Counted from the stretch's first letter, positions 4,556-20,385 are shown. The stretch: 24,000 bases of DNA from Pseudomonadota bacterium (GCA_020161475.1 JAIUNQ010000003.1:40818-64817); one strand, 5' to 3'. The notes: generated from the sequence alone by a model not told the origin. Numbers and translations: made by a program.

Positions 4556-6364
4556 ATGGTAAAGGTGCCGGAAGAAGACGCGATCGATGACGCGGAGCCG
4601 GTGCGGCGCAGGCCGTACCGGCGGCCCTTTGTCGTCACTTCGCTGGACGATCTGCGCTCGATGTTCTGGAACACCTTCGCGATCCTGGCGTTGGCCGTCA
4701 GCGTGCCGCTGGCCTATGCTCTGGTCACGCGCGACACGCTGGTGATTGAGGAAATCTCGACCCCCACAAGCCTTGAGGAGAAGGGCTATTTCGGCAAGGT
4801 GGTGGCTCAGCGCATCTTCGATGAAATGCGCTCGATCAGCCAATACACCATGAGCGAGGTTAAGCGGCTGGAGGTTTCATCCTCTCCGCTCGAGAACCAG
4901 CTTCCCCCTATCGAATTGCCGCTGGGTCAGCTCGATCTCCAGACGGTGATCCGACAGGCCCGCTTATGGCTCGGACTGCCGGATAAGACCATCACGGGAG
5001 AGATCATCGTCCATTCCCGCAAGGTCGGCACGGGTGAGGAAGCAGAGGAGCAACTCTCTTATTCCATGGCCCTGCGTTCCGCGCGCGACGGGTTGATCCA
5101 TCGCTCCAGCCGTGAATATCCGGATATGGAGAGTCTGACACGTGCGACTGCTGTTGCACTGGTGGAGCGTTTCGACCCTCTTTTTGCGGGGTATTACCAC
5201 TTCATGCGCCGCAACTACACGGAAGCGAAGCGCATTGTGGAAACAATGGAAGCTCAGGCCCCGCGCACCAAGCCTGCTGACGCTCCACTTGGCCCGGACA
5301 CAGCGGCAGCTAACCGTCTTCATTTGCGCGGGTTGATCGAGCGCGGCCAGAACAACTGGCGCGAGGCGGCGGATTGGTTCGGAAAGGCCCATGCCGTTAA
5401 CCCGGACAACTTGGTCATCGCCTCGGACTATACAGGTGCCCTGCGGCGGTTTGACCCAAAGCGAGCCGAAGAATTGGCACATGGGCTCGTTGAGCGTTTT
5501 CCCAAGGCCTGGAACGGCTACATGAACCTTGCCTTTGCGCGGGCGCAGCAGCGCCGCAACGGCGATGCACTCGCGTTGGTGAAACAGGCGATGGAGCTCG
5601 CGCCCGACTCTCCGGGGATGCTCTATCAGGCAAGCCTGATCCAGCGCGGCTCGGGGCGCATGGAGGATGCGGCAGCGTCACTCGAACGCACGCTGGCCCT
5701 TGACGCCACGGCTTTCCATGCGGCCCGCGAATTGGTGCGGGTCTATCGGGATCTCGAGCAATGGCCAAGAGCGCGGGTGGCTGCGGAAACAATGATCCGT
5801 ATAGACCCCACCCATGCTCTCGCCCATATCCACCTTGCGCGCGTGTTGATCGAAACGAAGGATCTGGCGGGCGCGGAAGCCGCGATGAAGGTGGCCCTGC
5901 AACTGGACCCTAAATCTGCTGTTGTGCTGGCAGAGCAAGGGCGCCTGCTCCTGATAAAGAACAACCTGACGCGCGCTCGCAAGGTGCTGGAAGAGGCGGT
6001 GGCGCTGGAGAATAGACTGCCCGAGGCACAGGAGTATCTTGGCGATGCGCTGGTGCGCGCGGGCAAGCGCACGGAAGCCATCGCCGCGTATCGCAATGCT
6101 ATTGACAGCACCATCTTCGCTCGTTGGCGTGCTGCCGATGCGCAGGCCAAGTTGGGGGAACTACTGGAAAAGGAAAAGGATGCAGCCGGGGCTGCTGCGG
6201 CTTATCGCGCCGCGCGAAACATGAATGCCTATCGCTACAAGGTTCTGGAGCAGAAGATCGCCGCTCTTGAAGCTGGCGCCGGCATGGATCAACGGGCTCT
6301 GACGGAGCGGGCAAAACCCAGCACCGCGCCGACCATGCGGCCTTCGACCCCCGCGAATCCATGA
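4556..6364 (+). CDS. Membrane-anchored tetratricopeptide-repeat (TPR) protein
   Basis: The ATG lies 3 nt after the hydrolase stop, suggesting an operon. There is one N-terminal hydrophobic helix (FWNTFAILALAVSVPLAYALV) and an unassigned domain of about 170 aa. These are followed by repeated 34-aa Ala/Leu/Tyr-patterned TPR-like units (e.g. NWREAADWFGKAHAVNPDN, EAQEYLGDALVRAGKRTEAIAAYRNAI). Confidence 0.75.
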   Translation: MVKVPEEDAIDDAEPVRRRPYRRPFVVTSLDDLRSMFWNTFAILALAVSVPLAYALVTRDTLVIEEISTPTSLEEKGYFGKVVAQRIFDEMRSISQYTMSEVKRLEVSSSPLENQLPPIELPLGQLDLQTVIRQARLWLGLPDKTITGEIIVHSRKVGTGEEAEEQLSYSMALRSARDGLIHRSSREYPDMESLTRATAVALVERFDPLFAGYYHFMRRNYTEAKRIVETMEAQAPRTKPADAPLGPDTAAANRLHLRGLIERGQNNWREAADWFGKAHAVNPDNLVIASDYTGALRRFDPKRAEELAHGLVERFPKAWNGYMNLAFARAQQRRNGDALALVKQAMELAPDSPGMLYQASLIQRGSGRMEDAAASLERTLALDATAFHAARELVRVYRDLEQWPRARVAAETMIRIDPTHALAHIHLARVLIETKDLAGAEAAMKVALQLDPKSAVVLAEQGRLLLIKNNLTRARKVLEEAVALENRLPEAQEYLGDALVRAGKRTEAIAAYRNAIDSTIFARWRAADAQAKLGELLEKEKDAAGAAAAYRAARNMNAYRYKVLEQKIAALEAGAGMDQRALTERAKPSTAPTMRPSTPANP

Positions 6365-7086
6365 TGCCCGCGCGCCTGACAGGGATCGCCCTCGTCGCGC
6401 CCGCCGTCCACCCAGACCACACGCGCCCGCCCGGCGGCCCAGTTGATGAAGGGGGCCACAAGCTCGGGCGAGGTGACGCGGCATCCATCCTTGCGGTGGT
6501 GCACGATCAGGGTCGGTGGCAAACTCCCGCTGGAGCCGACGTTGGACTGAAATTCGTCCAAAATGCCTGAGGTGATGACCAGGCCGTCCGCTTCCAATGC
6601 TCGATGCATGCGCGTTGCGGCGCGGCTGGTGCCAACCACGATAACCGGTCGGGCGATCTTGCTCATGGCCTCGATTGCGCGCGACGGGCTACCGGAGGAA
6701 GAGAGAGCCAATGTGGCAAAGCCGCCTGACACAAAGCTGCGGCGCGTGCGGATGAGCGAATTGCCCATCAGATCCGTGATCTGGCCATCAGTGGTGATAC
6801 CGAGGTTGCCGTGCCCGCCAGCCATCAGGATGATGCTGCCCCTTGGCTTGCCACTGGGACGCTCAAGCACCGCATCCGTACCCAGATCAGGCAAAAGCTC
6901 CGCGCGGGCAGGCCCCGCTCCAAGGCCAAGGAGTAGGATCAGGCTCACCACAAGTCGATATTTCATTGGCACCATGGCGAGCCCCAACACCCCCGGGAAG
7001 ATGGCCAAGACCTTAGCACGAATGTCCGCTCCGGCCAGGCTGCCGCCGTAAAACTGCCATTCCGCAATCGGCCCCTTCTTTGACAT
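6289..7086 (-). CDS. Alpha/beta-hydrolase-like protein, probably exported
   Basis: Motifs ILMAGGHGN, VVGTSRAA (a variant nucleophile elbow) and C-terminal RGHHGF. The internal MKYRLVVSLILLLGLGAGPARA-E (ATG at 6966) is a textbook signal peptide. However, the 40 codons upstream also have high GC3, so the start is ambiguous (7086, 6975 or 6966). The 3' end overlaps the convergent TPR gene by 76 nt. Confidence 0.6.
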   Translation of the reverse strand: MSKKGPIAEWQFYGGSLAGADIRAKVLAIFPGVLGLAMVPMKYRLVVSLILLLGLGAGPARAELLPDLGTDAVLERPSGKPRGSIILMAGGHGNLGITTDGQITDLMGNSLIRTRRSFVSGGFATLALSSSGSPSRAIEAMSKIARPVIVVGTSRAATRMHRALEADGLVITSGILDEFQSNVGSSGSLPPTLIVHHRKDGCRVTSPELVAPFINWAAGRARVVWVDGGRDEGDPCQARGHHGFAGVEGRMVGAVLGFARSVRAR

Positions 7087-7125
7087 TGGTGCAACTGTGA
7101 TGTGCGACGGTTACTAATCAGTCAA

Positions 7126-7554
7126 TTAATGGTATTTTTGAATGACGCTGCTTGTGACGCTGCTCCATTTCACGCCGTTTAAACTCAAATTCGCGTGAAA
7201 TTTATCTTGATCGAGGCGAAGTCGACCTGTCGAATCCTCATAAAGTGGGCTATCGGCCAAAGCCGATGCCAATATTTCTAAGTTGTCTCCGCCATAGGAA
7301 TCGTCGCCTAGATGCAGCGGATTCTTCCCGTCTGCCTCCATAAGTTCCATAAGAGCACCAACACGTCGAAGGACCTGAAACAAGACTTGTGATTTTGTAT
7401 GAGCGACCAATTGGTACTGTTCCAACGCGTCTATCGCAGCCAAATCATAAACCGGCCATTCCGAAAGTACCCGGTGAAGTACCTTGGCGACAAAGTCGCG
7501 ATGCGTAGCGTCATTCATGCGCGACAATAGCGCTTGCTTTGTCATATTCGGCAT
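7126..7554 (-). CDS. Hypothetical protein (142 aa), last gene of the lower-GC quorum-sensing module
   Basis: Same strand as luxI/P450. The sequence is protein-like and predicted helical (MPNMTKQALLSRMNDATHRDFVAKVLHRVL...). I recognise no motif, and the SD is weak (GGAAG). Confidence 0.55.
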   Translation of the reverse strand: MPNMTKQALLSRMNDATHRDFVAKVLHRVLSEWPVYDLAAIDALEQYQLVAHTKSQVLFQVLRRVGALMELMEADGKNPLHLGDDSYGGDNLEILASALADSPLYEDSTGRLRLDQDKFHANLSLNGVKWSSVTSSVIQKYH

Positions 7555-7590
7555 CTTGAACTTCCAGATCGTAGCTTCTTACTTCGTTTA

Positions 7591-7616
7591 TATCCCCGCC
7601 CCACTAGGCGGGGATA
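7591..7616 (-). promoter_or_regulatory. Intercistronic perfect 10-bp stem-loop between the 75-aa ORF and the 142-aa ORF
   Basis: TATCCCCGCC (7591-7600) and GGCGGGGATA (7607-7616) are exact reverse complements separated by a 6-nt loop. There is no U-run on either strand, so it is not a classical terminator. Confidence 0.5.
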
Positions 7617-7630
7617 ACTTGGAATGAGAC

Positions 7631-7858
7631 TTATGAGTCCTGGAGGGCGCTTCGTTCCAAATCATGCGCCGTGAGCGCCAAAACAATCGAATTTGCGCTC
7701 CGGTATCGATCAAAGTAGCTGGCCATAGCCAAGGCTTCAGCCAAGAGTCCGCTGATCCTCGAGTCGATCACCGACAATGCCTCGACATCGTTTGAAGGCT
7801 GAAAATTCGCATGCACCAAATTGCGCGGATCAGCGTAATCATCATCATCGCAAGACAT
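7631..7858 (-). CDS. Small acidic protein (75 aa), function unknown; a carrier-protein-like role is only a hypothesis
   Basis: The ATG at 7858 lies 10 nt after the P450 TAG (7869-7871), with GAGGAAG in between. The track start at 7912 would overlap P450 by 44 nt. The protein is Asp/Glu-rich and contains VIDSRISGLLAEALA around residue 33. Confidence 0.55.
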   Translation of the reverse strand: MSCDDDDYADPRNLVHANFQPSNDVEALSVIDSRISGLLAEALAMASYFDRYRSANSIVLALTAHDLERSALQDS

Positions 7859-7868
7859 CACTTCCTCG

Positions 7869-9158
7869 CTATGCGGCCGCTCGCGTTTGGGGGATGTTTT
7901 CGGCGAGTGCAACCTGTAGCTCGATTGGAGGCGGCAGTAGCGTGATTGCCGATTTTGGTTGGGGTGCAGGAACCTGGCTCAGAACCCGAATCTCCGTTGC
8001 GACGGAGAATTCAATGGCCATCAACTGCAGTTCGAGTATTGCTAGCCCCATACCGGTACAGGCACGTGCGCCAGCCCCAAATGGCAGAAATGCCTTCGAG
8101 GTGAAGTCGCGGCTCAGATCGAACTCGTTCGGCCGGTCCCAGTAGGCGGGCGAGCGATGATATAGCCAGGTCGGGATGAGCACGGTGTCGCCCTTGCTGA
8201 CTTTCTGTCCTCCGATTTCTTGGTCGCATTTGGCATCACGGGCAAACCAGTGAGCAGACGGATACAGTCGAAGCGTCTCCTTAACCGCCGCCAAGCTCAC
8301 TGAAGCTTGGGGAAGCTTATAAGCGCTGATTTCACCGCTTTCGTCCTGCAATGCCATGGCTTCTGCGGCGATCTTGTCCTTGAGGCCTGGGACGACAGAA
8401 AGGTGATAGAGTAGCCAAGCACTTGCATTTCCCGTCGTATGATGGCCTGCGACAATCATTGTCAGGATTTCGTCGGAAAGGTCCTCGTCCGATAAATTCA
8501 GGGCTTCGAGCGATTTTACGACGCTACCTTCAGGTGATCGACCGCGCACTCGTTGAACCACAGCACCCATTACGGCGCGAGCTGCTTTCCGCTCTCGAGC
8601 GCGGCGCAATTGTTCCCAAGGCATCAAAGGCAGTACGCGGAACATTTCATCGGACAAGTCGTCTTCAACACGTGCAACAGCCTGAACGATAACTTCTTCG
8701 TCTGCCTCTTGAAGGACGTCCTTGCCGAACATGACAGCAGAGACGAGGCGAAGGGACAGACGCGACGTCATCTCGTGTGCATCGAACGATTTCAGCTGCA
8801 TCAACTGCAAGATGAAACGACGAACGATGGCGGTCATTTCGGGTACGTACTGATTGGCAACGCCGCGGGCAAAGGCGCTGTGCAGGACACCGCGTCGGCG
8901 GCGGTGTTCTTCGCCACTCAGAGATAGTGAGCTGATCCCGAGCACCTTTCGGAGCTTATAAACCAAGCGTCCCTTGTCGATCTCCTCTTCCGGTGCCTTG
9001 AGCACGGACTTGACGAGTTCAGGGTCAGTCACCATCCAGATTGGCGTTGGACCAAGATAAGTCCGCTCAACGGGGCCTTTGGCTCGCTTCCCGACGGCGA
9101 GCATAAAGTTGAGCGGATCACGCCGAAACGGCAACATGTCGGAAAGCCAGTGTTTCAT
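7869..9158 (-). CDS. Cytochrome P450 monooxygenase
   Basis: I-helix AGHHTTGN, K-helix ETLRLYP, and the heme Cys-ligand loop FLPFGAGARACTGMGLA (F-x-x-G-x-R-x-C-x-G). The ATG at 9158 is preceded by GGAGG. The track start at 9236 would add an implausible N-terminus. This start lies 41 nt inside the 3' end of luxI. Confidence 0.9.
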   Translation of the reverse strand: MKHWLSDMLPFRRDPLNFMLAVGKRAKGPVERTYLGPTPIWMVTDPELVKSVLKAPEEEIDKGRLVYKLRKVLGISSLSLSGEEHRRRRGVLHSAFARGVANQYVPEMTAIVRRFILQLMQLKSFDAHEMTSRLSLRLVSAVMFGKDVLQEADEEVIVQAVARVEDDLSDEMFRVLPLMPWEQLRRARERKAARAVMGAVVQRVRGRSPEGSVVKSLEALNLSDEDLSDEILTMIVAGHHTTGNASAWLLYHLSVVPGLKDKIAAEAMALQDESGEISAYKLPQASVSLAAVKETLRLYPSAHWFARDAKCDQEIGGQKVSKGDTVLIPTWLYHRSPAYWDRPNEFDLSRDFTSKAFLPFGAGARACTGMGLAILELQLMAIEFSVATEIRVLSQVPAPQPKSAITLLPPPIELQVALAENIPQTRAAA

Positions 9159-9768
9159 CGGAAACCTCCATTGCATTGATCGAAGACACGAGACGTCGAA
9201 AGCGGGCACCATCCTGACCGCAAATCGGGATTTCACCGGCTAGGATTGCTAGGGGCTCTGACGTGCCGTTAAGGGGGATTTCGGTCGGTGGACCGTATCG
9301 CTTGGTCCGGATCCCGACAGTAGCCAGGTAGCGCTCGTACGTGAGGTCTGCGATTGCGACCAGTGCGCGCGCCTGCTGATAGAAGGCAAACCGGAACATT
9401 AGCCCATAGTTGATTTGAGCTAGCCGTCGCTGGTCGGCGCCCGGCTCAACACCAAATCTGGAGATTTCCCAAACATCGATCGACTTTGGATAAGGCCGAT
9501 CAACTGCGAGCTGCGGAAAAATGTGCTCGGCAAGGTAGGGGCCGTCTGTCCGAAGAGCTCGAAAGCCGCCGACGATCTTCTGTCCCCGAACAATCAGCGC
9601 GTAAACAGCCCTCGAAGTATCAAACTGATCGCGCTCTTCGTCTGCACTGACTTCCAACTGCCAACCTAGCTGATCGACAAAAAGTGACTTCCTAAAGCGA
9701 AAAAACTCGCTCGCCCTGTTAGGGTTTGAGTTGGAGTGGGTTATGATCGCACGGAGCCGTTCTGTCAT
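9118..9768 (-). CDS. LuxI-family acyl-homoserine-lactone synthase
   Basis: The N-terminal signature R26-x3-F30-x5-W36-x8-E45-x-D47-x2-D50 (FRFRKSLFVDQLGWQLEVSADEERDQFD) matches the conserved LuxI residue pattern with a 2-residue offset. WEISRF is also present. AGGAGG lies 6 nt upstream of the ATG at 9768. Confidence 0.9.
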   Translation of the reverse strand: MTERLRAIITHSNSNPNRASEFFRFRKSLFVDQLGWQLEVSADEERDQFDTSRAVYALIVRGQKIVGGFRALRTDGPYLAEHIFPQLAVDRPYPKSIDVWEISRFGVEPGADQRRLAQINYGLMFRFAFYQQARALVAIADLTYERYLATVGIRTKRYGPPTEIPLNGTSEPLAILAGEIPICGQDGARFRRLVSSINAMEVSDETLAFRHVAVSA

Positions 9769-9844
9769 CCGTCGCCTCCTATTTTGGAGAGCTACGATGG
9801 CAGGGCAGTGGAGCCGGAAGAATACCGGTTTTTGGGGGGTATTT

Positions 9845-10618
9845 ATGGATCTCGGAGAATGGATTGATCAGATCCAGCTGACAACCGATTTGGACTCACT
9901 GACTAAAGTTATGCAGCGCATCATTGAGCACTTTGGCTTCACTTCATGGTGCATGGTCGACGCTGGGCGTGCTTATGCAGATGTTCCATTTAATTTCGGG
10001 ACAACCGGCGCCACCTGGGTCAATCACTACAAGAGTAACGGGTTTGTGCACATTGACCCCTATATAGCGAAAGCACGTCGAGAAAATACTCCATTCGATT
10101 GGAGCTCAATTCCAAACCCGTTAACAAAGCGAGGACCAAAGTCAAAATTTAAATTCCTGATGGAATCAGCTTACGATAACGGATTTAAGGAAGGTCTAAT
10201 TTTTCCGTGTCATTTTAATGACAGGATAGGTCGAAGACATTCTGTTGTTTGTGTATTCTATTGGACCAGCGAAGAAAGTGAATTTCGAACCAAAATACCA
10301 GAAATTCGTATTTATCTTCATATGATTGTTATATATTTTATTACTCACTCTATGGAATTGTTGGCGCTGTCTGTCCGAGACAATGTTTCCCTCTTCAAGA
10401 CACCATCCGATGTTTTCGAACGCCGCTTAACTGATCGCGAGAGAGACGTGATTTCGTGGGCTGCTCGCGGAAAGACCGCATTCGAAACCGCAGAAATTTT
10501 GGGGCTTTCCAAAGATACGGTCGAGAAGCACATTTCAAATGTTGTCAGTAAGATCGACGCAAGGAATCGTACGCATGCAGTTGCGAAGTGTATACACCTG
10601 TCATTGATCGACTTATAA
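9845..10618 (+). CDS. LuxR-family AHL-responsive transcriptional regulator
   Basis: Autoinducer-domain signature W-x3-Y-x8-D-P (TWVNHYKSNGFVHIDPYI) and PFDW. The C-terminal GerE HTH is LTDRERDVISWAARGKTAFETAEILGLSKDTVEKHISNVVSKIDARNRTHAV. The ATG at 9845 follows a G-run; the track start at 9731 would overlap luxI. The coding sequence is strikingly AT-rich compared with the backbone. Confidence 0.88.
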   Translation: MDLGEWIDQIQLTTDLDSLTKVMQRIIEHFGFTSWCMVDAGRAYADVPFNFGTTGATWVNHYKSNGFVHIDPYIAKARRENTPFDWSSIPNPLTKRGPKSKFKFLMESAYDNGFKEGLIFPCHFNDRIGRRHSVVCVFYWTSEESEFRTKIPEIRIYLHMIVIYFITHSMELLALSVRDNVSLFKTPSDVFERRLTDRERDVISWAARGKTAFETAEILGLSKDTVEKHISNVVSKIDARNRTHAVAKCIHLSLIDL

Positions 10619-10964
10619 TACCATAAATAGACAGCGTCTAAAATGAATATTGTTTTGGTGTCATTTCAATGGCGCTGCCGAGAGCGCCGGTGACGCCGTC
10701 GGCGCGAAAAATGGTGCGCACCCACCCAGCCTCAGAAGCGCCGCTCGCGCCTCGGCTAGCGCGGCCTGCGTGGCATCGCTAGTCGGTTGGGCGCACCCTA
10801 TGGCAACCACTGACGTTCAAAGTGCCGGGATGGGCTCTAGCTTTACTTGGAGAAAGGATAAAGGGGGCGGACATAACGACTGCGTCTGCAAGACCCAAGA
10901 ATGTCAAAAATGACCGACGTGTCTGCATGTGATGTCCTTTAGCTTGATGCCTTGGTTTTTTTGG

Positions 10965-11750
10965 TCAGTTTTTCGCACGCTGACATCCGACGGCTATGGC
11001 CTCATCTTCAGAGCAGAACCATCGCCGCTTAGGTCCCTCCATGGACAACTTGCCATAATGGCGGCCGCCGGGAAGGTGGTAGATGCAGGCCCTAGGCTTG
11101 AGGTTGCCTTTGATCGAACATTTGGTTGAGGGCGGTTGGGCGGGGGAGCCGCAAAGGCGCCAATGGGCCTCGATCGAGATCGGAGCCAGGGAATGCAGTT
11201 GCGTATCGCAGTTTCTGTGGCGCCAGTCCCATGGCGCAATAAAGGAACCCGCCCAGAGGCCCTTCTTCTTGGCTTTGGCGTAGTCTTCCTCATAAGCGTA
11301 GGTTCTTGCGTAATGACGAAATGCGAGGGCCCATCCTTCGCTAACCAGCCACCGATTGATGTTCCAGCCCTCGACGAAACAGGTGCCTAGCGCGCGCCCG
11401 TAAGCATCGCTTCCCCGAAGCTGACACCGCCAGATTTCCTTGCCCGCTCTGTGAATGAGGGCGTCGCGGGCTGAAATGCCACAATTCCAATCGCTTCCTT
11501 CATGATCTAGACAGATCTGGTCGGTTTCCGGGGCGTCGACCCCCTGAAGACGGATTTTGGTGTCGGCAACAATGACGGTATCGCCATCCGTGATGACGGG
11601 GCTTCCAGCAACCTCGCGCACCCTGTTGCCGTACGGCTGAGCCAAAGCGGAGGTTATGCCCCATGTGAGGGATGCGACCATGACTAGGAGAAGAACCACG
11701 ACTATAACAGACCGACGTAGAGCGTGAAACGGGAAGCTTAAAGGGTCCAA
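10965..11750 (-). CDS. Exported thermonuclease (staphylococcal-nuclease fold) with a C-terminal Cys-flanked module
   Basis: SNase-like motifs DGDTVIV...IRLQGVDAPE, YGRALGTC and GLWAG...PWDWRH. The C-terminal CSIKGNL...IYHLPGGRHYGKL...RWFCSEDEAIAVGCQRA resembles, from memory, what is annotated as a sunset domain. The 332-aa track ORF has an Arg/Gly/Pro-rich junk-like N-terminus. A TTG at 11750 would give M-DPLSFPFHALRRSVIVVVLLLVMVASLTWGITSALA-QP, a classical signal peptide. Start uncertain. Confidence 0.75.
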   Translation of the reverse strand: MDPLSFPFHALRRSVIVVVLLLVMVASLTWGITSALAQPYGNRVREVAGSPVITDGDTVIVADTKIRLQGVDAPETDQICLDHEGSDWNCGISARDALIHRAGKEIWRCQLRGSDAYGRALGTCFVEGWNINRWLVSEGWALAFRHYARTYAYEEDYAKAKKKGLWAGSFIAPWDWRHRNCDTQLHSLAPISIEAHWRLCGSPAQPPSTKCSIKGNLKPRACIYHLPGGRHYGKLSMEGPKRRWFCSEDEAIAVGCQRAKN

Positions 11751-11989
11751 AAGAACGCGCGCCAGAGAAAGTTGCCGACGCCCCACCAGTACAGCATCCC
11801 CAGTGCGATTGCGGGTGCCCATATCCAGTCGAGGCGGCGCCACAACGGGCGCGCGCGGTCCTTTTCTCGGTGTGCCTCGTTGTCCTGCGCGATTGGTTCC
11901 CAGTAGCCCAAGTCTGCGTCCTTCGAGCGGTTCGTCTCGTGCACTCTTGTGCCCAGCGAGCATAGAATGAATGCCGGAGATACCAGCAT
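11738..11989 (-). CDS. Small membrane protein (83 aa), hypothetical
   Basis: This reading frame has strongly G/C-biased third positions, unlike the overlapping N-terminal extension of the nuclease ORF. There is one C-terminal hydrophobic, Trp-rich helix (LDWIWAPAIALGMLYWWGVGNFLW). Its TAA (11738-11740) sits just past the proposed nuclease TTG, suggesting coupling. Confidence 0.5.
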   Translation of the reverse strand: MLVSPAFILCSLGTRVHETNRSKDADLGYWEPIAQDNEAHREKDRARPLWRRLDWIWAPAIALGMLYWWGVGNFLWRAFFWTL

Positions 11990-12125: not shown

Positions 12126-15100
12126 ATGACCCCTCCTGCTGCCTTGGCGCTTGCTGCGCCGCTTTCCGTTCGCCCCCACCTCCCCTCTGTTTCTGGTGGC
12201 TGCCTTCTTGAGGCTGCGCGCTTGTTGCTGCGCTCCTTGTCCTCGGGCCGCCGCATTGACGCCGACGTTATGCGTTTGGCGATGGAGGAGGCTTTCGGCG
12301 GCTCAGACGCTGAGGGCGCCTGGTCCTGGAAGGATGCCTACGAGGCCATTGAGGCCGCGCAGATCCTCTTTCTTCGCCAGTTTGGCGCTTCCATTCTCGG
12401 GGGCGGTCGCTCCCCTGTGGCAATCCTCGGCATTCTCGAAACCCTAGGCGCCTTGCTCCCGACGCAGACACGTCGCTCGGAGGCTTCGCAGGCGCTGCAG
12501 CAGTTCTCCACGCCTGTGGAACTGGCATTTCTTGCAGCACAAGCTGCTCGTCTCTCGTCTTCAGACCTTGTGCTCGAGCCTTCGGCCGGGACCGGGATGC
12601 TGGCCATCTACGCCGAAATCGCGGGTGCCAGCCTCGTTCTCAATGAATGGGCAGAAGAGCGGCATGGCCTTTTAGCGGGACTGTTCCCGAAGGCACGGCT
12701 GACGCAGTTTGATGGGGCCCAGATCCATGATCGACTGGATCCGACGATCCGGCCCAGCGTGGTGCTCATGAACCCGCCGTTTTCGGCATCGCCCTTGGTT
12801 GCTGGGCGGTATGCGAATGCGACCTTCGAGCACATCCGCTCGGCGCTCGCGCGTCTGGAACCCAACGGTCGCCTCGTGGCCATCACTGGGGAAAGCTTGT
12901 CGCCTTACGGTCGGACTTGGCGCCCCGCATTCGAAAAGCTGCAGGCGTCATCGAGTGTCCGGGTGAGCTTTGCCTTATGTCGGGGGTTCTTCCGTCGCCA
13001 TGGAACCGATGTCGAGAGCCGCTTGACGGTCATCGACAAGCTGCCGGCTTCGAACGCATCGACCTTTCCGGCTCCGGCGGCACCGGCAGCGAATTTGCGC
13101 GATCTGCTCGCACTCATCGAAGAACATGTCCCGCCACGGGTGACGTCGCAGATCACCAGTCCCCCTACTCCGAGTGTGGCTTCGCCTGCACCCGTCGTCA
13201 CCTCCATTTCCACGTCTCGCCTTTCTGCCTTCGGCCGGTTGAAGCGTCCTGTTGCCTTGCCTTCGGCCCCAGAAACGATGGAGCGTCCATCCCAGTTGGA
13301 GGCGAAGTCCCCTCCCCTCTTGGCGTCTGCCGCGAGCGTCGACCCTCTCGTGGTTGATCAGCAGCCGCTGGACCTCTTCTCGATTGAAGAGCGGAAGGTT
13401 GGTGAGGCGTTCTCGGCGCAGCACCAGCCCCCGGAATCTAACGGCTCAGCCCCCTCCCCTGCTGTGGGCGCGGTTATCGAGTTGCAGTATACGCCGCAGG
13501 ATTGGGTGGCTTCGCCCACGGGGGGCCTCGATGCAGGTCTCTATGAAGCCTACCTCGTCCAGTCGATGGTGATCGAGGGTGCCAAGCCCCATCCGAGTGT
13601 GCTGGTCCAGTCCGCCGCCATGGCATCTGTTGCTCCGCCCAAGCCGAGCTATCGCCCTCATCTGCCGGAAGCGATTGTCTCAAGCGGTCTTCTCTCGGAT
13701 GCCCAGCTGGAGACCATCGTCTACGCCGGTGAAGCGCATGGCCAGCGGCTGGGCGGCTCGTGGGTCGTGAACGAGACCTTCGATGCACTCGAAGCCGCCG
13801 CAGAGGGCGCCGAAGATGCCGTGACCTTCCGACGCGGGTTCTACTTGGGCGATGGTACAGGGGCGGGCAAGGGCCGCCAGGTTGCAGGCGTGGTGCTCGA
13901 TAACTGGCTCAAGGGGCGCAAGAAGGCGCTCTGGATTTCCAAATCGGACAAGCTGCTCGAAGACGCCCAACGCGATTGGGCTGCGCTTGGGCAAGAAAAA
14001 CTCCAGATTGTCCCCCTCTCGCGCTTCAAACAGGGCACGCCCGTGACCTTGAGCGAGGGGATCCTGTTCACCACCTACGCCACCTTGCGCTCGGATGAGC
14101 GTCAGGGGCCGGGCGGAGAGATCAAGGCCTCGCGCCTCAAGCAGGTCATCGATTGGCTTGGCAAGGATGCCGGTGCTGGCGCAGCGGCCGACTTCGACGG
14201 CGTCATCGTCTTCGATGAGGCCCATGCCATGGCTAATGCGGCCGGCGAGAAGGGGGCGCGGGGCGACAAATCCGCGTCCCAGCAGGGTCGTGCCGGGGTG
14301 CGTCTTCAGAATGCCCTGCCTCAGGCCCGCGTGCTCTATGTCTCGGCCACAGGCGCGACGACGGTGTCGAACCTCGCCTATGCCTCGCGTCTTGGTCTCT
14401 GGGGTTCAACCGATATGCCCTTTGCCACGCGCGAGGCTTTCGTCGAGGCGATGGAAGCGGGTGGCATTGCCGCGATGGAGGTTCTCGCGCGCGATCTCAA
14501 AGCGCTAGGGCTCTACACGGCGCGCGCCCTCTCCTACGCCGGTGTCGAGGTTGAGATGCTCGAGCACCAGCTCAGTGCCGAGCAGATCCGTATATATGAC
14601 GCATACGCTTCCGCCTTCGAGATCATCCATAACAATCTCAATGCGGCGCTCGAAGCTTCGAACATCACTGGCGAGGGCGGTAAATCGTATAACAAGAACG
14701 CCAAATCCGCCGCGCGCTCCGCGTTTGAATCGAACAAGCAGCGCTTCTTCGCCCATCTCATCACCGCGATGAAGGCACCGAGCCTGATCAAGGCGATCGA
14801 GGCGGATATGGAGGCAGGCCATGCTGCCGTTATCCAGATCGTCTCAACCAATGAAGCGCTGCTTGAGCGTCGCCTAGCCGAGATCCCGACCTCGGAATGG
14901 AACGATCTATCGGTCGATATCACCCCGCGCGAATATGTCCTCGATTACCTCGCTCATTCCTTTCCGACAGGGCTCTTCGAGGTCTATTCGGATGATGACG
15001 GGAACCTGCAATCGCGACCAGCGATGGATGAGGATGGAAACCCGGTTCAGTCCCGCGAGGCGGTGGAGCGGCGAGATCGACTGATCGAGCATCTGGCGTC

Positions 15101-16751
15101 CCTTCCGGCGGTGCAGGGGGCCCTCGATCAGATCATCCAGCGCTTCGGCACCGATATGGTTGCGGAGGTCACCGGGCGTTCAAGGCGTATCGTGGCAAAG
15201 ACCAATGCCGATGGTTCACAGCGTCTTTGCGTCGAGAACCGGGCGGCCTCGGCAAACCTCGGCGAAACGCGTGCGTTTCAGGGAGATCAGAAGCGCATTC
15301 TGGTGTTTTCTGATGCGGGTGGTACGGGGCGGAGCTATCACGCCGAGCGATCCGCGAAGAACCAGCGCCTGCGCGTTCACTACCTTCTTGAGCCGGGCTG
15401 GAAGGCCGATAACGCCATCCAAGGCTTGGGGCGCACCAATCGCACCAATCAGGCGCAGCCGCCGCTCTTTCGGCCCGTGGCGAGTGATGTGAAAGGCGAG
15501 AAGAGGTTTCTGTCCACCATTGCCCGGCGCCTCGATACCTTGGGTGCCATTACGAGGGGGCAGCGTCAGACCGGTGGTCAGGGCATGTTCCGGGCGGAGG
15601 ACAATCTCGAATCCAGTTACGGTCGGCTCGCACTGCGCCAGCTCTACATGCTGATCTACATGGGCAAGGTCGAGGCCTGCTCGCTGGAACGCTTCGAGGC
15701 GGTGACGGGTCTGCCCCTGACGGATCGGGATGGCAGCCTGCTTGAAGACCTCCCCCCGATCACGACCTTTCTCAATCGCATCCTCGCGCTCCCGATTGCA
15801 CTGCAAAACCGACTGTTCGAGGTGTTCGAAAGCCTGATGGAAGCGGCGATTGAGGGGGCGATGCAGGCTGGAACCTTTGATATCGGTGTCGAGACGGTGA
15901 GCGCCGAGAGTATCGCGATAGAGGATCGTCAGGTGACTGCGACCCATGCGGGGAGCGGCGCCACCACGTCGTTGCTCACGCTCGAACGAAAGGATCGAGC
16001 GGAGATCACCCCGATTGAAGATATCTTCGCCCAGCTGAGCACAAACCCTAGGGCGCGGCTGATGCATAACCGGCAGTCCGACCGGGCCGCGCTCGTGATG
16101 CCGACGACGAGCCTGATGCAGGATGACGGGAGGGTTTGCCCGCGCGTTCGCCTCATCCGGCCCAATGCGCGCGAGGTGATGCCGGTTGAAGCGTTCGAGA
16201 AATCCCAATGGCGGGATACGGATGAGAGCGCCTTCCGTTTTGCTTGGGAGGAGGAGGTCCGGGGCATCCCGCCCTTCACCCAGACGCGCTTTCACATGGT
16301 GGTGGGGCTGCTGCTGCCGGTGTGGAGGCAGTTTCCGGAGGAGAACACGCGTGTCTATCGCCTCCAGAGCGATTGCGGACAGCGGCTCATCGGGCGTCTG
16401 GTCTCTCCCGCAACTGTTGCTGCACTGAGGGAGGCGCTGCTCAGCAAGCCCCCTGCCCTTTCATCTCAGGATGCCGTGGCAACGATCCTGAAGGACAACA
16501 CGGGGCTTCTGCTGCGCGATGGGCTTGCTCTGAAGCGTTCTCTCGTCATGACGCGTCAGCGCATCGAGATGACCGGCTTCTCGGATCGGGATGTTCCGCG
16601 CCTCAAAGCGCTGGGGCTCATGTCCGAAATCATCACCTGGAAACTCCGGCTCTTCGTTCCTGTGGGCGATGAGGCCGCCGCCATTCTGGCGCGCTTGTTC
16701 GAGCTCTACCCAATCCAGCGCATCGTTCGTTCCACTCGCGTCGGCAGTTAA
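12126..16751 (+). CDS. Fusion of an N6-adenine/N4-cytosine-type SAM methyltransferase with a strawberry-notch (Sno) family helicase/NTPase (1541 aa)
   Basis: MTase motif I VLEPSAGTGMLA and motif IV LMNPPF. A Pro/Ser-rich linker of about 140 aa follows. Sno-type P-loop GDGTGAGKGRQ, DEAH box VIVFDEAHAMAN, and C-terminal helicase motifs FSDAGGTGRSYHA and GLGRTNRTNQ. Confidence 0.9.
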   Translation: MTPPAALALAAPLSVRPHLPSVSGGCLLEAARLLLRSLSSGRRIDADVMRLAMEEAFGGSDAEGAWSWKDAYEAIEAAQILFLRQFGASILGGGRSPVAILGILETLGALLPTQTRRSEASQALQQFSTPVELAFLAAQAARLSSSDLVLEPSAGTGMLAIYAEIAGASLVLNEWAEERHGLLAGLFPKARLTQFDGAQIHDRLDPTIRPSVVLMNPPFSASPLVAGRYANATFEHIRSALARLEPNGRLVAITGESLSPYGRTWRPAFEKLQASSSVRVSFALCRGFFRRHGTDVESRLTVIDKLPASNASTFPAPAAPAANLRDLLALIEEHVPPRVTSQITSPPTPSVASPAPVVTSISTSRLSAFGRLKRPVALPSAPETMERPSQLEAKSPPLLASAASVDPLVVDQQPLDLFSIEERKVGEAFSAQHQPPESNGSAPSPAVGAVIELQYTPQDWVASPTGGLDAGLYEAYLVQSMVIEGAKPHPSVLVQSAAMASVAPPKPSYRPHLPEAIVSSGLLSDAQLETIVYAGEAHGQRLGGSWVVNETFDALEAAAEGAEDAVTFRRGFYLGDGTGAGKGRQVAGVVLDNWLKGRKKALWISKSDKLLEDAQRDWAALGQEKLQIVPLSRFKQGTPVTLSEGILFTTYATLRSDERQGPGGEIKASRLKQVIDWLGKDAGAGAAADFDGVIVFDEAHAMANAAGEKGARGDKSASQQGRAGVRLQNALPQARVLYVSATGATTVSNLAYASRLGLWGSTDMPFATREAFVEAMEAGGIAAMEVLARDLKALGLYTARALSYAGVEVEMLEHQLSAEQIRIYDAYASAFEIIHNNLNAALEASNITGEGGKSYNKNAKSAARSAFESNKQRFFAHLITAMKAPSLIKAIEADMEAGHAAVIQIVSTNEALLERRLAEIPTSEWNDLSVDITPREYVLDYLAHSFPTGLFEVYSDDDGNLQSRPAMDEDGNPVQSREAVERRDRLIEHLASLPAVQGALDQIIQRFGTDMVAEVTGRSRRIVAKTNADGSQRLCVENRAASANLGETRAFQGDQKRILVFSDAGGTGRSYHAERSAKNQRLRVHYLLEPGWKADNAIQGLGRTNRTNQAQPPLFRPVASDVKGEKRFLSTIARRLDTLGAITRGQRQTGGQGMFRAEDNLESSYGRLALRQLYMLIYMGKVEACSLERFEAVTGLPLTDRDGSLLEDLPPITTFLNRILALPIALQNRLFEVFESLMEAAIEGAMQAGTFDIGVETVSAESIAIEDRQVTATHAGSGATTSLLTLERKDRAEITPIEDIFAQLSTNPRARLMHNRQSDRAALVMPTTSLMQDDGRVCPRVRLIRPNAREVMPVEAFEKSQWRDTDESAFRFAWEEEVRGIPPFTQTRFHMVVGLLLPVWRQFPEENTRVYRLQSDCGQRLIGRLVSPATVAALREALLSKPPALSSQDAVATILKDNTGLLLRDGLALKRSLVMTRQRIEMTGFSDRDVPRLKALGLMSEIITWKLRLFVPVGDEAAAILARLFELYPIQRIVRSTRVGS

Positions 16752-16761
16752 GGCGGAAGCG

Positions 16762-17805
16762 ATGGCTGCGCCTGCAAGGGAACTCTCACAACAGCTGGCA
16801 GAGCGCGCGGAAGCGGTCTGCCGCCATTATCTTTCGAATGGATATCGCTCAGGAGCCTATTGGCTTGTGGGCGATCTAGGGAATGCCAAGGGCCGCTCGC
16901 TCTTCGTGCGTCTCAATGGTGGCCCGGCAGGTCGATCGAACCGAGGCAAATGGCAGGATGCAGCCACAGGAGAACACGGTGATCTTCTCGATCTGATTGC
17001 CGCACGGGAGGGCCACACCCGCTTCGCAGATACCCTGGCGGAGGCGCGACGTTTTCTTGGACAACCGGACCTCGCTCCCGAACATGGCTTCGCCCGCGAC
17101 CTCAAGGAAACGTATAGAGCCACTTCTGACACCACCCTGCTCGCCAAGCGCATCTGGGGGGAATGCCGCCCCATCTGCGGCACAGCGGGGGAGGCCTATC
17201 TGAAGGGGCGCGGGGTCTGCCTCGACGGGATATCGTCAATCCGCTTTCATCCCGCCCTCCCCTATCGGGCCGATGATCGCGCCGGGCCTGTTAGGCTCCC
17301 CGCCTATGTGGTTGCGGTCACCGATTCTGCTGGGCGCTTGACCGGTATCCAGCGTCGGTGGCTTCGCCATGGCGATCGAACTGGTGGCATCATCGCGCCC
17401 CGCAAGTCGCTCGGACATCTTCACGGCAACGGCGTCTGGCTTCGCCATGGACGGCACTTTCAGGAGAGCGGTGTCATCGTGGCCGGTGAAGGTGTTGAGA
17501 CGGTGCTCTCGGTGGCTGAAGTGTTGCGAACCCCAACCCTGATCGCCTGCCTTTCCGCGAGCCATCTTGCGGCCTTCTGTTGGCCTGAATGGTGCAAGCG
17601 GCTTCTCATCCTCCAGGACAATGACCCGGCGGGTATCAGGGCCTCACGGCGCTTGGCAGCCCGTGCGCGTGAAGCGGGTATCTCCAGCGCGATCTTTCGC
17701 CCCGTCCTTAAGGACTTCAACGCCGATCTGCGCCTGCTGGGGTGGGCCGCCTTGGCCGATCACCTCTCGCGGCAGGTGCCGGATCTTGTGATCGTTGACG
17801 GGTAA
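16762..17805 (+). CDS. Toprim-domain protein (primase-like, 347 aa)
   Basis: The ATG at 16762 lies 10 nt after the upstream TAA; the track start at 16591 lies inside the previous gene. Toprim glutamate VAGEGVETVLS and DxD-type motif LQDNDPAG. The N-terminal AVCRHYLSNG...GDLLDLI resembles the N-terminus of P4-alpha/TraC-like primase-associated domains. Confidence 0.8.
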   Translation: MAAPARELSQQLAERAEAVCRHYLSNGYRSGAYWLVGDLGNAKGRSLFVRLNGGPAGRSNRGKWQDAATGEHGDLLDLIAAREGHTRFADTLAEARRFLGQPDLAPEHGFARDLKETYRATSDTTLLAKRIWGECRPICGTAGEAYLKGRGVCLDGISSIRFHPALPYRADDRAGPVRLPAYVVAVTDSAGRLTGIQRRWLRHGDRTGGIIAPRKSLGHLHGNGVWLRHGRHFQESGVIVAGEGVETVLSVAEVLRTPTLIACLSASHLAAFCWPEWCKRLLILQDNDPAGIRASRRLAARAREAGISSAIFRPVLKDFNADLRLLGWAALADHLSRQVPDLVIVDG

Positions 17806-18072
17806 GGTTTTGTTAACCTGCCCGCTGGCGGCTGATCGGTGAAGGCTCCTGACTCCCCGTGAGAGATCCGCAGCCCGGGGCCTTGGAAGAGACGGTCGAT
17901 CGGGCCACAGGCGCTGCCCCTGCTGCAACGGCGGTGCCGTCCTCCTCTTCGTTCCGGTCCCTGCCGGGGGCTTGATGCCCCCTTGGGGATGCAGCGTTGC
18001 CGCCCCTGCGCCCGTTTATCGCCCGTCAAGGCCCGCGATGGTGCGGGTGATCCTTCAGGAGGCGAGCGAGCC

Positions 18073-19005
18073 ATGTATCACGATCAGGAATTCCACCAGA
18101 GCGAGGCGATTGGCGCTTCACCCTCTCCCCATCTTCTCGATGAGCTCCAGCTCCACGGCTATCGCCCGCTCGAGGAAGAAGGGGATCCGCGCCCCCTCCC
18201 CTCGCCCAAGGCCGCAGAGCAATCGCTTGGCGCCATGTTCGAGGCAGCCTCGACCCTCTTCATGGAAACGCGGCTCGAGAATGACCTGCCCGATCTTCTC
18301 TGGAGCTTCGTGAACCTCTTTCATCGCCAGACCGAACGCATGGGGCGGCTTCTGGATGAGAACGAGACCGCTCAGCGCAATGCCCAGGCTCAGCAGGATG
18401 GTTCGGAGGTTCGCTCGGTCGAGCTTGAGCGCCTGACCGCTCTGGGTCTTTCGCTGATCGAGCGGCGCAATGCCTTCGAGTTCTTTCGCGAAACCGCCGC
18501 GCAGTTCTTTGCCGCGGAGACGGGCTCTCTCTGGCGTCCCCGTTCGGGTTCGCTCGTCAATCATCGCGCGCTGACCTCGGCGCTGGTCGACAGTCGCGAC
18601 TTCATCAACGCGCGCAAGATTTCTGAGACGAGCGTGCTGGTGCCTGCGGGGCATCGCATCGGCTTCGCCGGAGGCACGGATTACAATGATCATACGAAGG
18701 TCTGGGACATCCTCGACAAGACCCGCTCAAAGCACCCCGATATGGTGCTCCTGCATGGGGGTGGCGCCCGCGGTGCCGAGCGCATCGCGTCCTGCTGGGC
18801 CGAGAACCGCAAGGTGCCGCAGGTGATCTTCAAACCTGACTGGGCCAAGCACCGCAATGCCGCTCCCTTCAAGCGCAATGACCAATTGCTCGAAGCCTTG
18901 CCGATCGGCTTGATCCTGTTCCCGGGCTCGGGAATTGTCGAAAACCTCGGTGACAAGGCTCGCAAGCTTGGCATTCCGGTTTGGCGATGCGGGCAGGGGG
19001 CGTAA
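18073..19005 (+). CDS. DUF2493 (SLOG-fold) domain protein with an N-terminal extension of about 190 aa
   Basis: The ATG at 18073 follows AGGAGG (18055-18060). The C-terminus DMVLLHGGGARGAERIASCWAENRKVPQVIFKPDWAKHRNAAPFKRNDQLLE matches my recollection of DUF2493. Confidence 0.75.
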   Translation: MYHDQEFHQSEAIGASPSPHLLDELQLHGYRPLEEEGDPRPLPSPKAAEQSLGAMFEAASTLFMETRLENDLPDLLWSFVNLFHRQTERMGRLLDENETAQRNAQAQQDGSEVRSVELERLTALGLSLIERRNAFEFFRETAAQFFAAETGSLWRPRSGSLVNHRALTSALVDSRDFINARKISETSVLVPAGHRIGFAGGTDYNDHTKVWDILDKTRSKHPDMVLLHGGGARGAERIASCWAENRKVPQVIFKPDWAKHRNAAPFKRNDQLLEALPIGLILFPGSGIVENLGDKARKLGIPVWRCGQGA

Positions 19006-19045
19006 GCCCCCGTTTCTCTTCAAGCGGTATCCGCAATTAAAAGAG

Positions 19046-19076
19046 CCGCGTGCGTCATGAGATCGCGCGCGGTTTG
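19046..19076 (+). terminator. Possible weak terminator after the DUF2493 gene
   Basis: CCGCGTGCG (19046-19054) pairs with CGCGCGCGG (19064-19072) as a 9-bp stem with one G-U pair and a 9-nt loop. It is followed only by TTT, which makes it weak. Confidence 0.3.
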
Positions 19077-19854
19077 GCGGCTGCCTGCTCGAACTCTGAC
19101 TGTAGTTCTCATCCTGCCCACGCCGTGCGCTACCCCGCGCGTGACAAATCTCCCCGTCGATGTCGATTGTGACTGGCCGGTTCAACATGGCGCATCGATC
19201 GTAGCGTTGTGACCTCCAGCCGCCGCCTTCCTGCAAGCGGACCCGGCTCTCATGCGTCATGGGGCGGGAAGGTAGGGGCAGGAGCGTTCCGCATGAGAAG
19301 GGCTGCCCGCGACTGTGAACCAGATCAGGATGTGACTGCTCCGGCATCCATCTCGTGACGCGCGGGGGGTGATCCAAAGCAACGGAACTCCGGGACTTGA
19401 GCCTTGGACCGACGCCAGCGTCGCTACTCCATGCCCGAAGCCAAAGAGGCGCGCTTATTCTTTGTGCCACCAAATGTTGTCATGGCCGGAAGAAGGGCGG
19501 GGCCCGACCACCATGAGCACTGCCCCCTTGAAGGGAGGAAGACCGATCCGCATCCATCGTTCTCGCCTCCGTTGCGCGTCCGTGATCTCGTCAGCTGCGT
19601 GTCCAGATGGGCTGATCTGACCGGAGGGCGGATGCCTCGGGGCATCCTCGCATCGATCCGCCAACAGGCCTCCCCTGAAAATTTCCGCCGGCGGGAAATC
19701 CGCCTTTGCATCGCGAGACAAATTTTAAGGTGAGCCCCGTCCTCCACATTCGTTCCGGCCCGGTGGGTGTCGGTCGCTGCGCCTCCGGTCTTTCGATCGC
19801 CATCAGGCACGCATCAGACGTGACCTGAAACGCCAAACAAACGGAGATACGACA

Positions 19855-20184
19855 ATGGCTACGATCGGCACTTTCTCTCTCGCCAAGGACGGCTTCCTCG
19901 CAGGCTCCATCAAGACCCTCACCCTCGATACTCAGGCCACCTTCGAGCCGGTGGAAAGCGAAAGCAAAGGCGCTCCCTCCTTCCGTCTCTATGCGGGCGA
20001 CGTCGAGCTCGGTGCCGCCTGGCCCAAGACCGCCCAGAAGTCCGGACGCGAGTATCACCAGGTGCGCATCGACGATCCGAGCCTGCCCAAGCCGATCTTC
20101 GCCAATCTGGTGGTGAACCGTGACGGCGGCTTCGATCTCCTCTGGAACCGCCCGCGCAGTACCAACAGCCGCACCCGGCACTGA
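19855..20184 (+). CDS. DUF736 domain protein
   Basis: MATIGTFSLAKDGFLAGSIKTLTLD...APSFRLYAGDVELGAAWPKT...GREYHQVRIDDPSLPKPIFANLV is the characteristic DUF736 pattern seen on alphaproteobacterial plasmids and ICEs. GGAGA lies upstream of the ATG. Confidence 0.85.
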   Translation: MATIGTFSLAKDGFLAGSIKTLTLDTQATFEPVESESKGAPSFRLYAGDVELGAAWPKTAQKSGREYHQVRIDDPSLPKPIFANLVVNRDGGFDLLWNRPRSTNSRTRH

Positions 20185-20199
20185 TGACGGCATGTGCAG

Positions 20200-20230
20200 G
20201 CCGCTCGCCGAAAGGCGGGCGGCTTTTGTT
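20200..20230 (+). terminator. Rho-independent terminator after DUF736
   Basis: GCCGCTCGCC (20200-20209), loop GAAA, GGCGGGCGGC (20214-20223, one G-U pair), then TTTTGTT. Confidence 0.8.
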
Positions 20231-20232
20231 GA

Positions 20233-20248
20233 GTTGGCCGCGGCCAAC
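20233..20248. promoter_or_regulatory. parS-type centromere palindrome GTTGGCCGCGGCCAAC, copy 1 (upstream of repA)
   Basis: A perfect 16-bp palindrome that fits the published repABC parS consensus GTTNNCNGCNGNNAAC at every constrained position. Confidence 0.75.
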
Positions 20249-20332
20249 TTTCTCTGCGGGGCTACCCCAGAATCGGGTTAAACTTGCTTAACGATAAAGT
20301 TCTTGCCGGTTCCAAGGAATCGTGTCTTTCCT

Positions 20333-20371
20333 GATACGGAATATTGGGTGCATCGCCCTGAAATCCGTATC
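20333..20371. promoter_or_regulatory. Inverted repeat in the repA leader/promoter region (candidate RepA/RepB operator or leader hairpin)
   Basis: GATACGGA (20333-20340) and TCCGTATC (20364-20371) are exact inverted partners; the exact match extends by 1 bp (TGATACGGA, 20332-20340 / TCCGTATCA, 20364-20372). CAAGGAAT also occurs twice in direct orientation (20313-20320 and 20371-20378). Confidence 0.4.
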
Positions 20372-20385
20372 AAGGAATTAAATTC

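Follow-up and report, generated by a model that had tools for sequence, protein, structure and literature searches.

A recurrent luxR-luxI-cytochrome P450 cassette of Alphaproteobacteria suggests an undescribed, oxidised quorum-sensing signal

A 24,000-nucleotide (nt) stretch of DNA from a Pseudomonadota bacterium (GCA_020161475.1, JAIUNQ010000003.1:40818-64817), the whole of which is called the window below, carries a quorum-sensing locus in which luxI, the gene for the synthase of an acyl-homoserine lactone (AHL), overlaps the gene for a cytochrome P450, while luxR, the gene for an AHL receptor, is read divergently from the pair. We find that this three-gene unit is carried by more than 120 loci of soil and water Alphaproteobacteria and that the pairing of luxI with the P450 gene is near-obligate and ancient. 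The recurrent luxI-P450 unit suggests an undescribed, chemically oxidised signal. The features at the core of the locus are as follows.

9845..10618, plus strand: luxR, AHL-receptor transcription factor, 257 amino acids (aa)
9822..9842, no strand: lux-box-like imperfect dyad, ATACCCC-N7-CCGGTAT
9118..9768, minus strand: luxI, acyl-homoserine-lactone synthase, 216 aa
9118..9158, minus strand: luxI/P450 dual-coding overlap of 41 nt, comprising the 3' end of luxI and the 5' end of the P450 gene
7869..9158, minus strand: cytochrome P450, 429 aa, soluble, without a fused reductase

An initial annotation of the locus, made from the sequence alone, had delimited these three open reading frames (ORFs) and two smaller ones behind the P450 gene, and our ORF list and reading of the sequence returned the same coordinates for all five, with luxR on the plus strand diverging from luxI on the minus strand.

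Recurrence of the three-gene unit

The adjacency of luxI and the P450 gene, on which the initial annotation had staked its hypothesis, recurs whether the search is anchored on one gene or on the other. Scanning one genome per species with a P450 alignment of 23 sequences (A1) gave 80 loci, 66 of them orthologous; luxI lies directly upstream on the same strand in 64 of the 65 orthologous loci with upstream room, the exception being that of Phyllobacterium phragmitis (L053), and a divergent luxR is found beyond luxI wherever the contig extends far enough. For the converse search, a first LuxI alignment of 29 sequences proved too diverse to find loci and one of 10 sequences worked; the LuxI alignment A3, run against metagenome contigs, yielded 65 loci, and a P450 gene is present in 58 of the 60 that have downstream room. 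Of the two misses, one (L140) is a deletion junction and the other (L150) an out-of-clade LuxI, only 27% identical. These counts rule out a chance adjacency. Decay, too, can strike the two genes jointly, luxI and the P450 gene both being fragmented in two loci (L142 and L148).

All-against-all clustering of every ORF in 67 loci showed that luxR, luxI and the P450 gene are the only conserved members and that the flanks vary. In 45 of 50 loci the cassette has a lower G+C content (GC) than its flanks (mean difference -3.6 points, p = 6e-12), an indication that the three-gene unit has spread horizontally, and the cassette is found on plasmids as well as chromosomes, an example being plasmid p1S06B of Bradyrhizobium japonicum, in which the overlapping pair carries generic names from the Prokaryotic Genome Annotation Pipeline (PGAP). 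The varied flanks, the lower GC and the carriage on both kinds of replicon together argue for a mobile three-gene cassette. Pairwise identities of LuxI, LuxR and the P450 correlate with one another across 62 loci (r = 0.83-0.84), with mean divergences of 44%, 46% and 50%, respectively; hence, the three genes appear to evolve as one unit.

The carrier genera, which belong to the Hyphomicrobiales, include Hyphomicrobium, Xanthobacter, Bradyrhizobium, Nitrobacter, Methylocystis, Microvirga, Aureimonas and Methyloligella. Among the culturable carriers are Hyphomicrobium facile DSM 1565, Methylocystis rosea SV97, Aureimonas ureilytica DSM 18598, Aquabacter cavernae and B. japonicum S06B-BJ. A second, distant luxR-luxI-P450 clade is found in Nitrospirillum, Azospirillum sp. 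B4 and an alphaproteobacterial metagenome-assembled genome (MAG) (L067-L072, L076 and L077); its P450 is 30% identical to that of the window, and its P450 gene follows luxI after a gap of 14 nt, with no overlap. At least two luxI-P450 clades were thus found. In one locus of the second clade (L070), a gene resembling cyclopropane-fatty-acid synthases lies convergently just downstream.

Several individual loci show further features. Two copies of the cassette lie on one MAG chromosome (OY969085.1, at 0.66 and 1.65 Mb; L005 and L006), with identical luxI-luxR spacers and nearly equal scores, suggesting either that the cassette was duplicated recently or that a mobile element is repeated. A small gene of the XRE helix-turn-helix type stands beside the cassette, up- or downstream, in 11 of the 67 loci (e.g., at 7529-7777 in L009 and 3997-4509 in L012) and may be an accessory regulator. 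One locus (L104, 197-2119) has two tandem luxR homologues upstream of a single luxI-P450 pair. In the closest metagenomic relative, whose P450 is 66% identical to that of the window (L083, 1-6500), the cassette comes after a series of short genes, all read in one direction, that code for a DNA methylase and for DHFR_2, HD_4 and NUDIX proteins. This series resembles an accessory region of a phage or an integrative and conjugative element; no viral contig searched with the P450 alignment gave a match, and the cassette is not evidently phage-borne.

The overlap and the proteins encoded around it

The P450 gene starts with an ATG at 9158, preceded within luxI by a GGAGG Shine-Dalgarno sequence at 9169-9165, and the TGA of luxI ends at 9118, all of which agrees with the initial annotation. 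A longer ORF with a GTG start is also available, but the start at 9158 is favoured because homologues are about 429 aa long and begin with the same Met. Of 65 loci, 58 have an overlap of exactly 41 nt; it measures 140 nt in six loci of Hyphomicrobium and 71 nt in the remaining one, and in most loci a GGAG stands about 8-12 nt before the P450 ATG. At the 41-nt overlap, the luxI stop takes its first base from the end of P450 codon 13 and its other two from the start of codon 14 (codons for Arg or His, then Asp or Asn). Codon 13 is CGT in 46 of these loci and CAT in 12; CGG occurs in only the seven loci with a longer overlap, while CGC and CGA are never used, despite the G+C-rich genomes. The absence of these synonymous codons indicates that the site is held by the need to keep the luxI stop (T-GA or T-AA), and the retained 41-nt overlap, the internal Shine-Dalgarno sequence and the synonymous T together argue for selection for coupled expression. 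The proposal that luxI and the P450 gene form one coupled unit gains support from these features and from the near-obligate pairing seen in both directions; co-transcription and translational coupling are thus probable on the strength of the sequence. Both sides of the overlap are conserved, the LuxI tail as ..EIxDETLVxGxxxxSA and the P450 N-terminus as MKHWFSDLxAFRRDP. One possibility is that LuxI and the P450 form a physical complex in which the synthase hands over its product, which could account for both the conserved tail of LuxI and the coupled translation.

LuxI matches the autoinducer synthase family PF00765 (69 bits against a cut-off of 24, E = 4.8e-19). Residues R26, F30, W36, D47, D50, R70 and R104 are invariant in 29 orthologues, and E101 and S103 are kept in at least 90% of them. 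The nearest solved structures are TofI and LasI, to which the LuxI profile aligns over residues 16-172, covering both halves of the protein; these two acyl-ACP enzymes score better (6e-31 and 2e-28) than the acyl-CoA enzymes BjaI (9e-23) and RpaI (3e-19), and the donor of LuxI therefore leans towards an ordinary fatty acyl group on acyl carrier protein (ACP). A score of 67 bits against the NCBIfam TraI cut-off of 250 sets this LuxI apart as a separate clade. The window's LuxI is 100% identical to an NCBI protein from a MAG that is annotated as ‘hypothetical’.

The P450 is a single-domain protein matching PF00067 (187 bits, 6.9e-55), whose gene ends with a TAG at 7871-7869. Its homologues constitute a family of about 429 aa (419-462 aa among the matches listed) from Hyphomicrobiales and are 44-66% identical to it; these best-match identities are affected by a gap in word-index recall or display, in that the P450 protein search missed the window's own protein (best match 66%) while the LuxI search returned a 100% match belonging to the same element. 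Across 23 sequences the Cys-ligand loop FxxGxRxCxG (F360, G361, G363, R365 and C367), the EXXR residues E294 and R297, and G238, H240 and T241 of the I-helix (in AGHHTTG) are invariant. In place of the acid of this helix stands a His, as in CYP51. A ratio of nonsynonymous to synonymous substitution rates (dN/dS) of 0.05 relative to a 92%-identical homologue (L084) indicates strong purifying selection.

An AlphaFold2 (AF2) model of the P450 (mean predicted local distance difference test score, pLDDT, 88) is matched best by CYP184A1 of Streptomyces avermitilis (template modelling score, TM, 0.85; 24% identity), whose solved structures (7wzl and 7wzm) include a complex with oleic acid. The next fold matches are CYP3A and CYP102, among them variants of P450 BM3 with N-decanoyl-homoserine lactone (HSL) bound, and the best sequence matches are CYP3A, CYP97, CYP184, CYP170, CYP51 and CYP102. 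The modelled fold thus suggests an acyl-chain substrate. CYP184A1 itself has no link to quorum sensing and belongs to a different P450 family. CYP102A1 (P450 BM3) shares the broad fold group and the class of acyl-chain substrates, its heme domain with N-decanoyl-HSL superposing at a TM of about 0.80-0.82; in contrast to the P450 of the cassette, it is fused to a reductase, occurs in a Gram-positive bacterium that does not produce AHLs, acts as a quencher with no link to luxI and is 21% identical. The initial annotation had drawn an analogy with the acyl-ACP-oxidising P450 BioI (CYP107H1), for which the sequence offers no support: the protein falls in a CYP3/CYP102/CYP184-like group, and no CYP107 relative is present among the 60 best sequence or 50 best fold matches listed.

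LuxR combines an Autoind_bind domain (PF03472, 1.2e-15) with a GerE domain (PF00196, 1.7e-14). Gene callers also give a 273-aa form from a start further upstream, and the N-termini of homologues favour the start at 9845. Residues W58, Y62, D71, P72 and W86 are equivalent to W57, Y61, D70, P71 and W85 of TraR; among 62 orthologues, Y62, D71 and W86 are present in all, P72 in 53, and position 58 is W in 51 and F in 11. As the residues contacting the lactone and the amide are kept, the ligand is very probably still an acyl-HSL.

In most orthologous loci a dyad of 18-20 bp adjoins the start of luxR and precedes the luxI ATG by about 50-65 nt; that of the window likewise borders the luxR start, about 54 nt upstream of the luxI ATG. 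The arms covary between loci (e.g., ATCACGGTTTACCGTGAT, CTCCCGATTTTTCGGGAT and CTTGGGAAAATTCCCAAT), with at least six of the seven outer positions pairing in 38 of 61 loci, compared with 16% of shuffled sequences. This lux-box-like covariation makes it probable that luxI and the P450 gene are autoinduced together.

A predicted oxidised signal and the competing explanations

We propose, with a probability that we put at about 0.52, that the cassette is a self-contained mobile luxR/luxI/P450 circuit whose signal is an acyl-HSL with an oxidised acyl chain: the P450 would act on the product of LuxI or on the precursor of that product, and LuxR would sense the result. LuxI would make a straight-chain acyl-HSL, probably from acyl-ACP, and the P450 made alongside it would hydroxylate, epoxidise or desaturate the acyl chain at a position other than C3, either in the completed AHL or, with lower probability, in the acyl donor. 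This oxidised product would then be sensed by the cognate LuxR, which would activate the luxI-P450 operon via the dyad upstream of luxI; a housekeeping ferredoxin and reductase would supply the electrons. We infer this substrate, this reaction and this preference of LuxR from several converging features. As the cassette consists of a receptor, a synthase and a P450 only and moves between hosts, the substrate of the P450 should be either supplied by the cassette or universal. The selected coupled expression, the co-divergence with the receptor, the joint decay of luxI and the P450 gene, and the fold of a fatty-acyl type then favour the product or precursor of LuxI. More tentatively, the LuxI-P450 pair might make an undescribed class of AHL, oxidised by the P450 at places that fatty-acid synthesis cannot reach. 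Such a signal could be private to a large family of mobile circuits carried by Hyphomicrobiales of soil and fresh water, to which the circuits of Nitrospirillum would form a sister family.

A number of observations weigh against the proposed oxidised-signal circuit. In a few loci (L089 and L140) luxI is kept while the P450 is lost or truncated. Conversely, Phyllobacterium phragmitis (L053, 4534-7368) has two tandem P450 paralogues with neither luxI nor luxR, flanked by genes for a sulfotransferase and an S-adenosylmethionine (SAM)-dependent methyltransferase, so that the P450 family also has a use outside quorum sensing. No locus encodes a redox partner: no ferredoxin or reductase gene recurs beside the cassette in the 67 loci, and, in keeping with the initial annotation, the neighbouring ORFs scanned in the window have no such domain. 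The dyad of the window is weak, with five of seven positions paired and a longer spacer; the assignment of LuxI to ACP rather than coenzyme A (CoA) donors rests only on relative profile scores; and the fold similarity of the P450 comes with only 21-24% identity, which cannot assign a substrate. Finally, the only documented action of a P450 on AHLs, that of CYP102A1, lowers signal activity and fits signal turnover equally well.

Such turnover would be built in, the P450 oxidising the circuit's own AHL to a weaker or inactive form and thereby providing negative feedback, sharpening or a reset. The relation of the fold to CYP102, with its documented AHL complexes and AHL oxidation, is consistent with this, reviews count P450 oxidation among the routes of quorum quenching, and a P450 under the same autoinduced promoter would give a delayed negative feedback. 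Yet the production of a synthase and its antagonist from coupled, overlapping frames in nearly all of the more than 120 loci is hard to square with a net signal, and the co-divergence with LuxR better fits a receptor that recognises the product of the P450 than one that is indifferent to it. To our knowledge, the self-quenching enzymes described so far are not coupled to luxI, and we regard turnover as an unlikely function of the P450.

Genes directly downstream of luxI are commonly quorum-regulated targets. The P450 could accordingly be a quorum-controlled payload that merely rides in the luxI operon and acts on an external or unrelated substrate, such as the AHLs of competitors, host or plant lipids or a general metabolite. 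The mobility of the cassette, evident in its GC and its presence on plasmids, would suit such a cargo, as would the Phyllobacterium paralogues beside sulfotransferase and methyltransferase genes. A payload, however, has no need of a dual-coding overlap held by selection at a synonymous site, nor should its divergence track that of LuxI and LuxR as closely as these two track each other, and the loci hold no other sign of a pathway; it strikes us as improbable. We give still less credence to a P450 that acts before LuxI and, much as BioI does, would oxidise or cleave an acyl-ACP or acyl-CoA so that LuxI receives an unusual donor: coupled expression would suit a hand-over of substrate, and the crotonase gene of Mesorhizobium japonicum, proposed to make a CoA substrate, follows the same logic (PMC10470506), but the P450 is unrelated to BioI/CYP107 in the sequence and fold rankings and LuxI resembles ordinary ACP-type synthases. 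By its outcome, this last alternative is a sub-case of the proposed circuit, as the signal is oxidised either way.

The closest published system is the R1-I1-crotonase circuit of M. japonicum, where the production of 2E,4E-C12:2-HSL depends on a gene that follows a CoA-type luxI at a distance of 8 bp (Suo et al. 2023, mBio, PMC10470506); its authors describe it as a variant, with three genes, of the canonical two-gene circuit, and its receptor is highly selective for the cognate signal. Both systems are conserved three-gene units of Alphaproteobacteria in which luxR and luxI are joined by a third gene, for an enzyme, placed immediately downstream of luxI and read in the direction of luxI. The third enzyme there is of the crotonase superfamily and would catalyse an enoyl isomerisation or dehydration, whereas here it is a P450 predicted to carry out an oxidation, the genes overlap by 41 nt, LuxI is closest to ACP-type synthases and the cassette is far more widespread; there the third gene is needed for the signal, and here such a requirement is predicted. 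With canonical LuxR-LuxI circuits (TraR/TraI and LasR/LasI) the cassette shares the divergent gene pair, the dyad upstream of luxI, the AHL-binding and synthase residues and carriage on plasmids, but its LuxI, besides forming its own clade, carries a conserved C-terminal tail in addition and has an obligate partner in the P450.

Two candidates for characterised relatives were rejected: NwiI of Nitrobacter, which makes the unusual C10:1-HSL, is BjaI-like and produces its signal alone in Escherichia coli, and CYP127A3, which one survey assigns to an M. japonicum cluster labelled ‘hserlactone’, did not turn up in the family-specific scans and is treated as unrelated. The initial annotation knew of no characterised luxI-P450 operon, and we likewise found no description of one in the full-text literature searched, whose coverage leaves out most subscription journals; one paper offers only the speculation that AHLs are modified by an unlinked P450 in a strain of Rhodobacteraceae.

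That the basic circuit can include a third linked enzyme has been on record only since 2023, for the single case of the crotonase, and the present cassettes, more than 120 in number, add a different enzyme class, the P450. About 35 AHL structures are known, and for most of the luxR-luxI pairs catalogued, more than 6,000 in all, the product is undefined (PMC12160550). If the P450 does shape the signal, AHL chemistry would be widened, and the cassette would offer synthetic biology a highly selective, orthogonal signal-receptor pair. Standard biosensors would then probably miss the signal, which could explain why some carriers of luxI score negative. Azospirillum amazonense Y2, which has luxI and luxR genes, is negative in AHL bioassays (PMC3169532); this is compatible with a non-standard signal, though weak as evidence, and the luxI of Y2 may or may not be linked to a P450. 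As several carriers are cultured type strains, the question is directly testable.

Lineage-specific genes and the surrounding element

Behind the P450 gene, the window has two small genes, separated by a hairpin.

7631..7858, minus strand: orf75, small acidic protein of unknown function, lineage-specific
7591..7616, minus strand: 11-bp G+C-rich hairpin without a U-tract, in the orf75-orf142 spacer
7126..7554, minus strand: orf142, conserved protein of unknown function, lineage-specific

The ATG of orf75, at 7858, lies 10 nt past the P450 stop behind a GAGGAAG at 7867-7861, as had been described. Its product has no Pfam, NCBIfam or PADLOC match and only one full-length homologue (66% identity) among 1.84 billion representatives, encoded at the same position behind a 92%-identical P450. 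The orf142 product has just two homologues (99% and 73% identity) in 5.8 billion clusters; its AF2 model (pLDDT 72) is mainly helical, with no fold match in the Protein Data Bank (PDB; best E = 1.8), and it has no Pfam match. Neither small ORF matches any defence system or family searched. On the 1.9-kb contig L084, the gene for a 92%-identical P450 precedes orf75 (67%) and orf142 (79%) in the same order; relative to these, dN/dS is 0.37 for orf75 and 0.09 for orf142, so that both look like real genes. The initial annotation counted them in the unit with luxI and the P450 gene; they nevertheless fall outside the conserved system, being confined to near-identical copies of the element and the one 92%-identical relative and absent from the more than 120 other cassettes. 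We conclude that they are an accessory add-on of one lineage.

The hairpin (7616-7591), which the initial annotation did not mention, gives the 86-nt spacer a minimum free energy of -28.8 kcal/mol (z = -3.4) and is kept in L084 despite changes in the sequence of stem and loop. A simple terminator scan missed it, as it has no T-run; it is probably the end of the operon or an mRNA-stabilising element. An Rfam scan of the whole window gave no match.

The cassette and the small genes lie in a low-GC islet at about 7000-11000 of the window, with GC of 43% for luxR, 55% for luxI, 56% for the P450 gene, 51% for orf75 and 48% for orf142, as against 59-64% for flanking genes. The backbone at 12126-22604 looks like that of a plasmid and includes the following genes.

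12126-16751: Strawberry-notch-type helicase, 1541 aa, whose N-terminal region of about 490 aa has no Pfam match
16591-17805: Toprim/DUF7146 protein
17983-19005: SLOG YspA-like protein
20386-21600: RepA/ParA-like gene
21582-22604: RepB gene

Near-identical copies of the element are present in several metagenome assemblies (L081, L082 and L151-L155). A search of the plasmids in PLSDB for DNA similarity to 7000-10700 gave no match, and a protein-level plasmid search found two plasmids only.

A gene for a staphylococcal-nuclease-like protein (SNase) at 10965-11963 adjoins the cassette in the window, and SNase genes also lie within 1-2 kb of the cassette in three unrelated loci (L028, 7762-8241; L056, 7935-8357; L060, 1763-2353); this recurrent neighbour may reflect a common mobile-element backbone. 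Beyond orf142, a 265-aa ORF on the minus strand (6289-7086), which has a signal-peptide-like N-terminus and no family match, overlaps at its 3' end by 76 nt the 3' end of a convergent gene for a 602-aa tetratricopeptide-repeat (TPR) protein (4556-6364, plus strand). With a GC of 64%, this ORF is like the backbone and unlike the islet.

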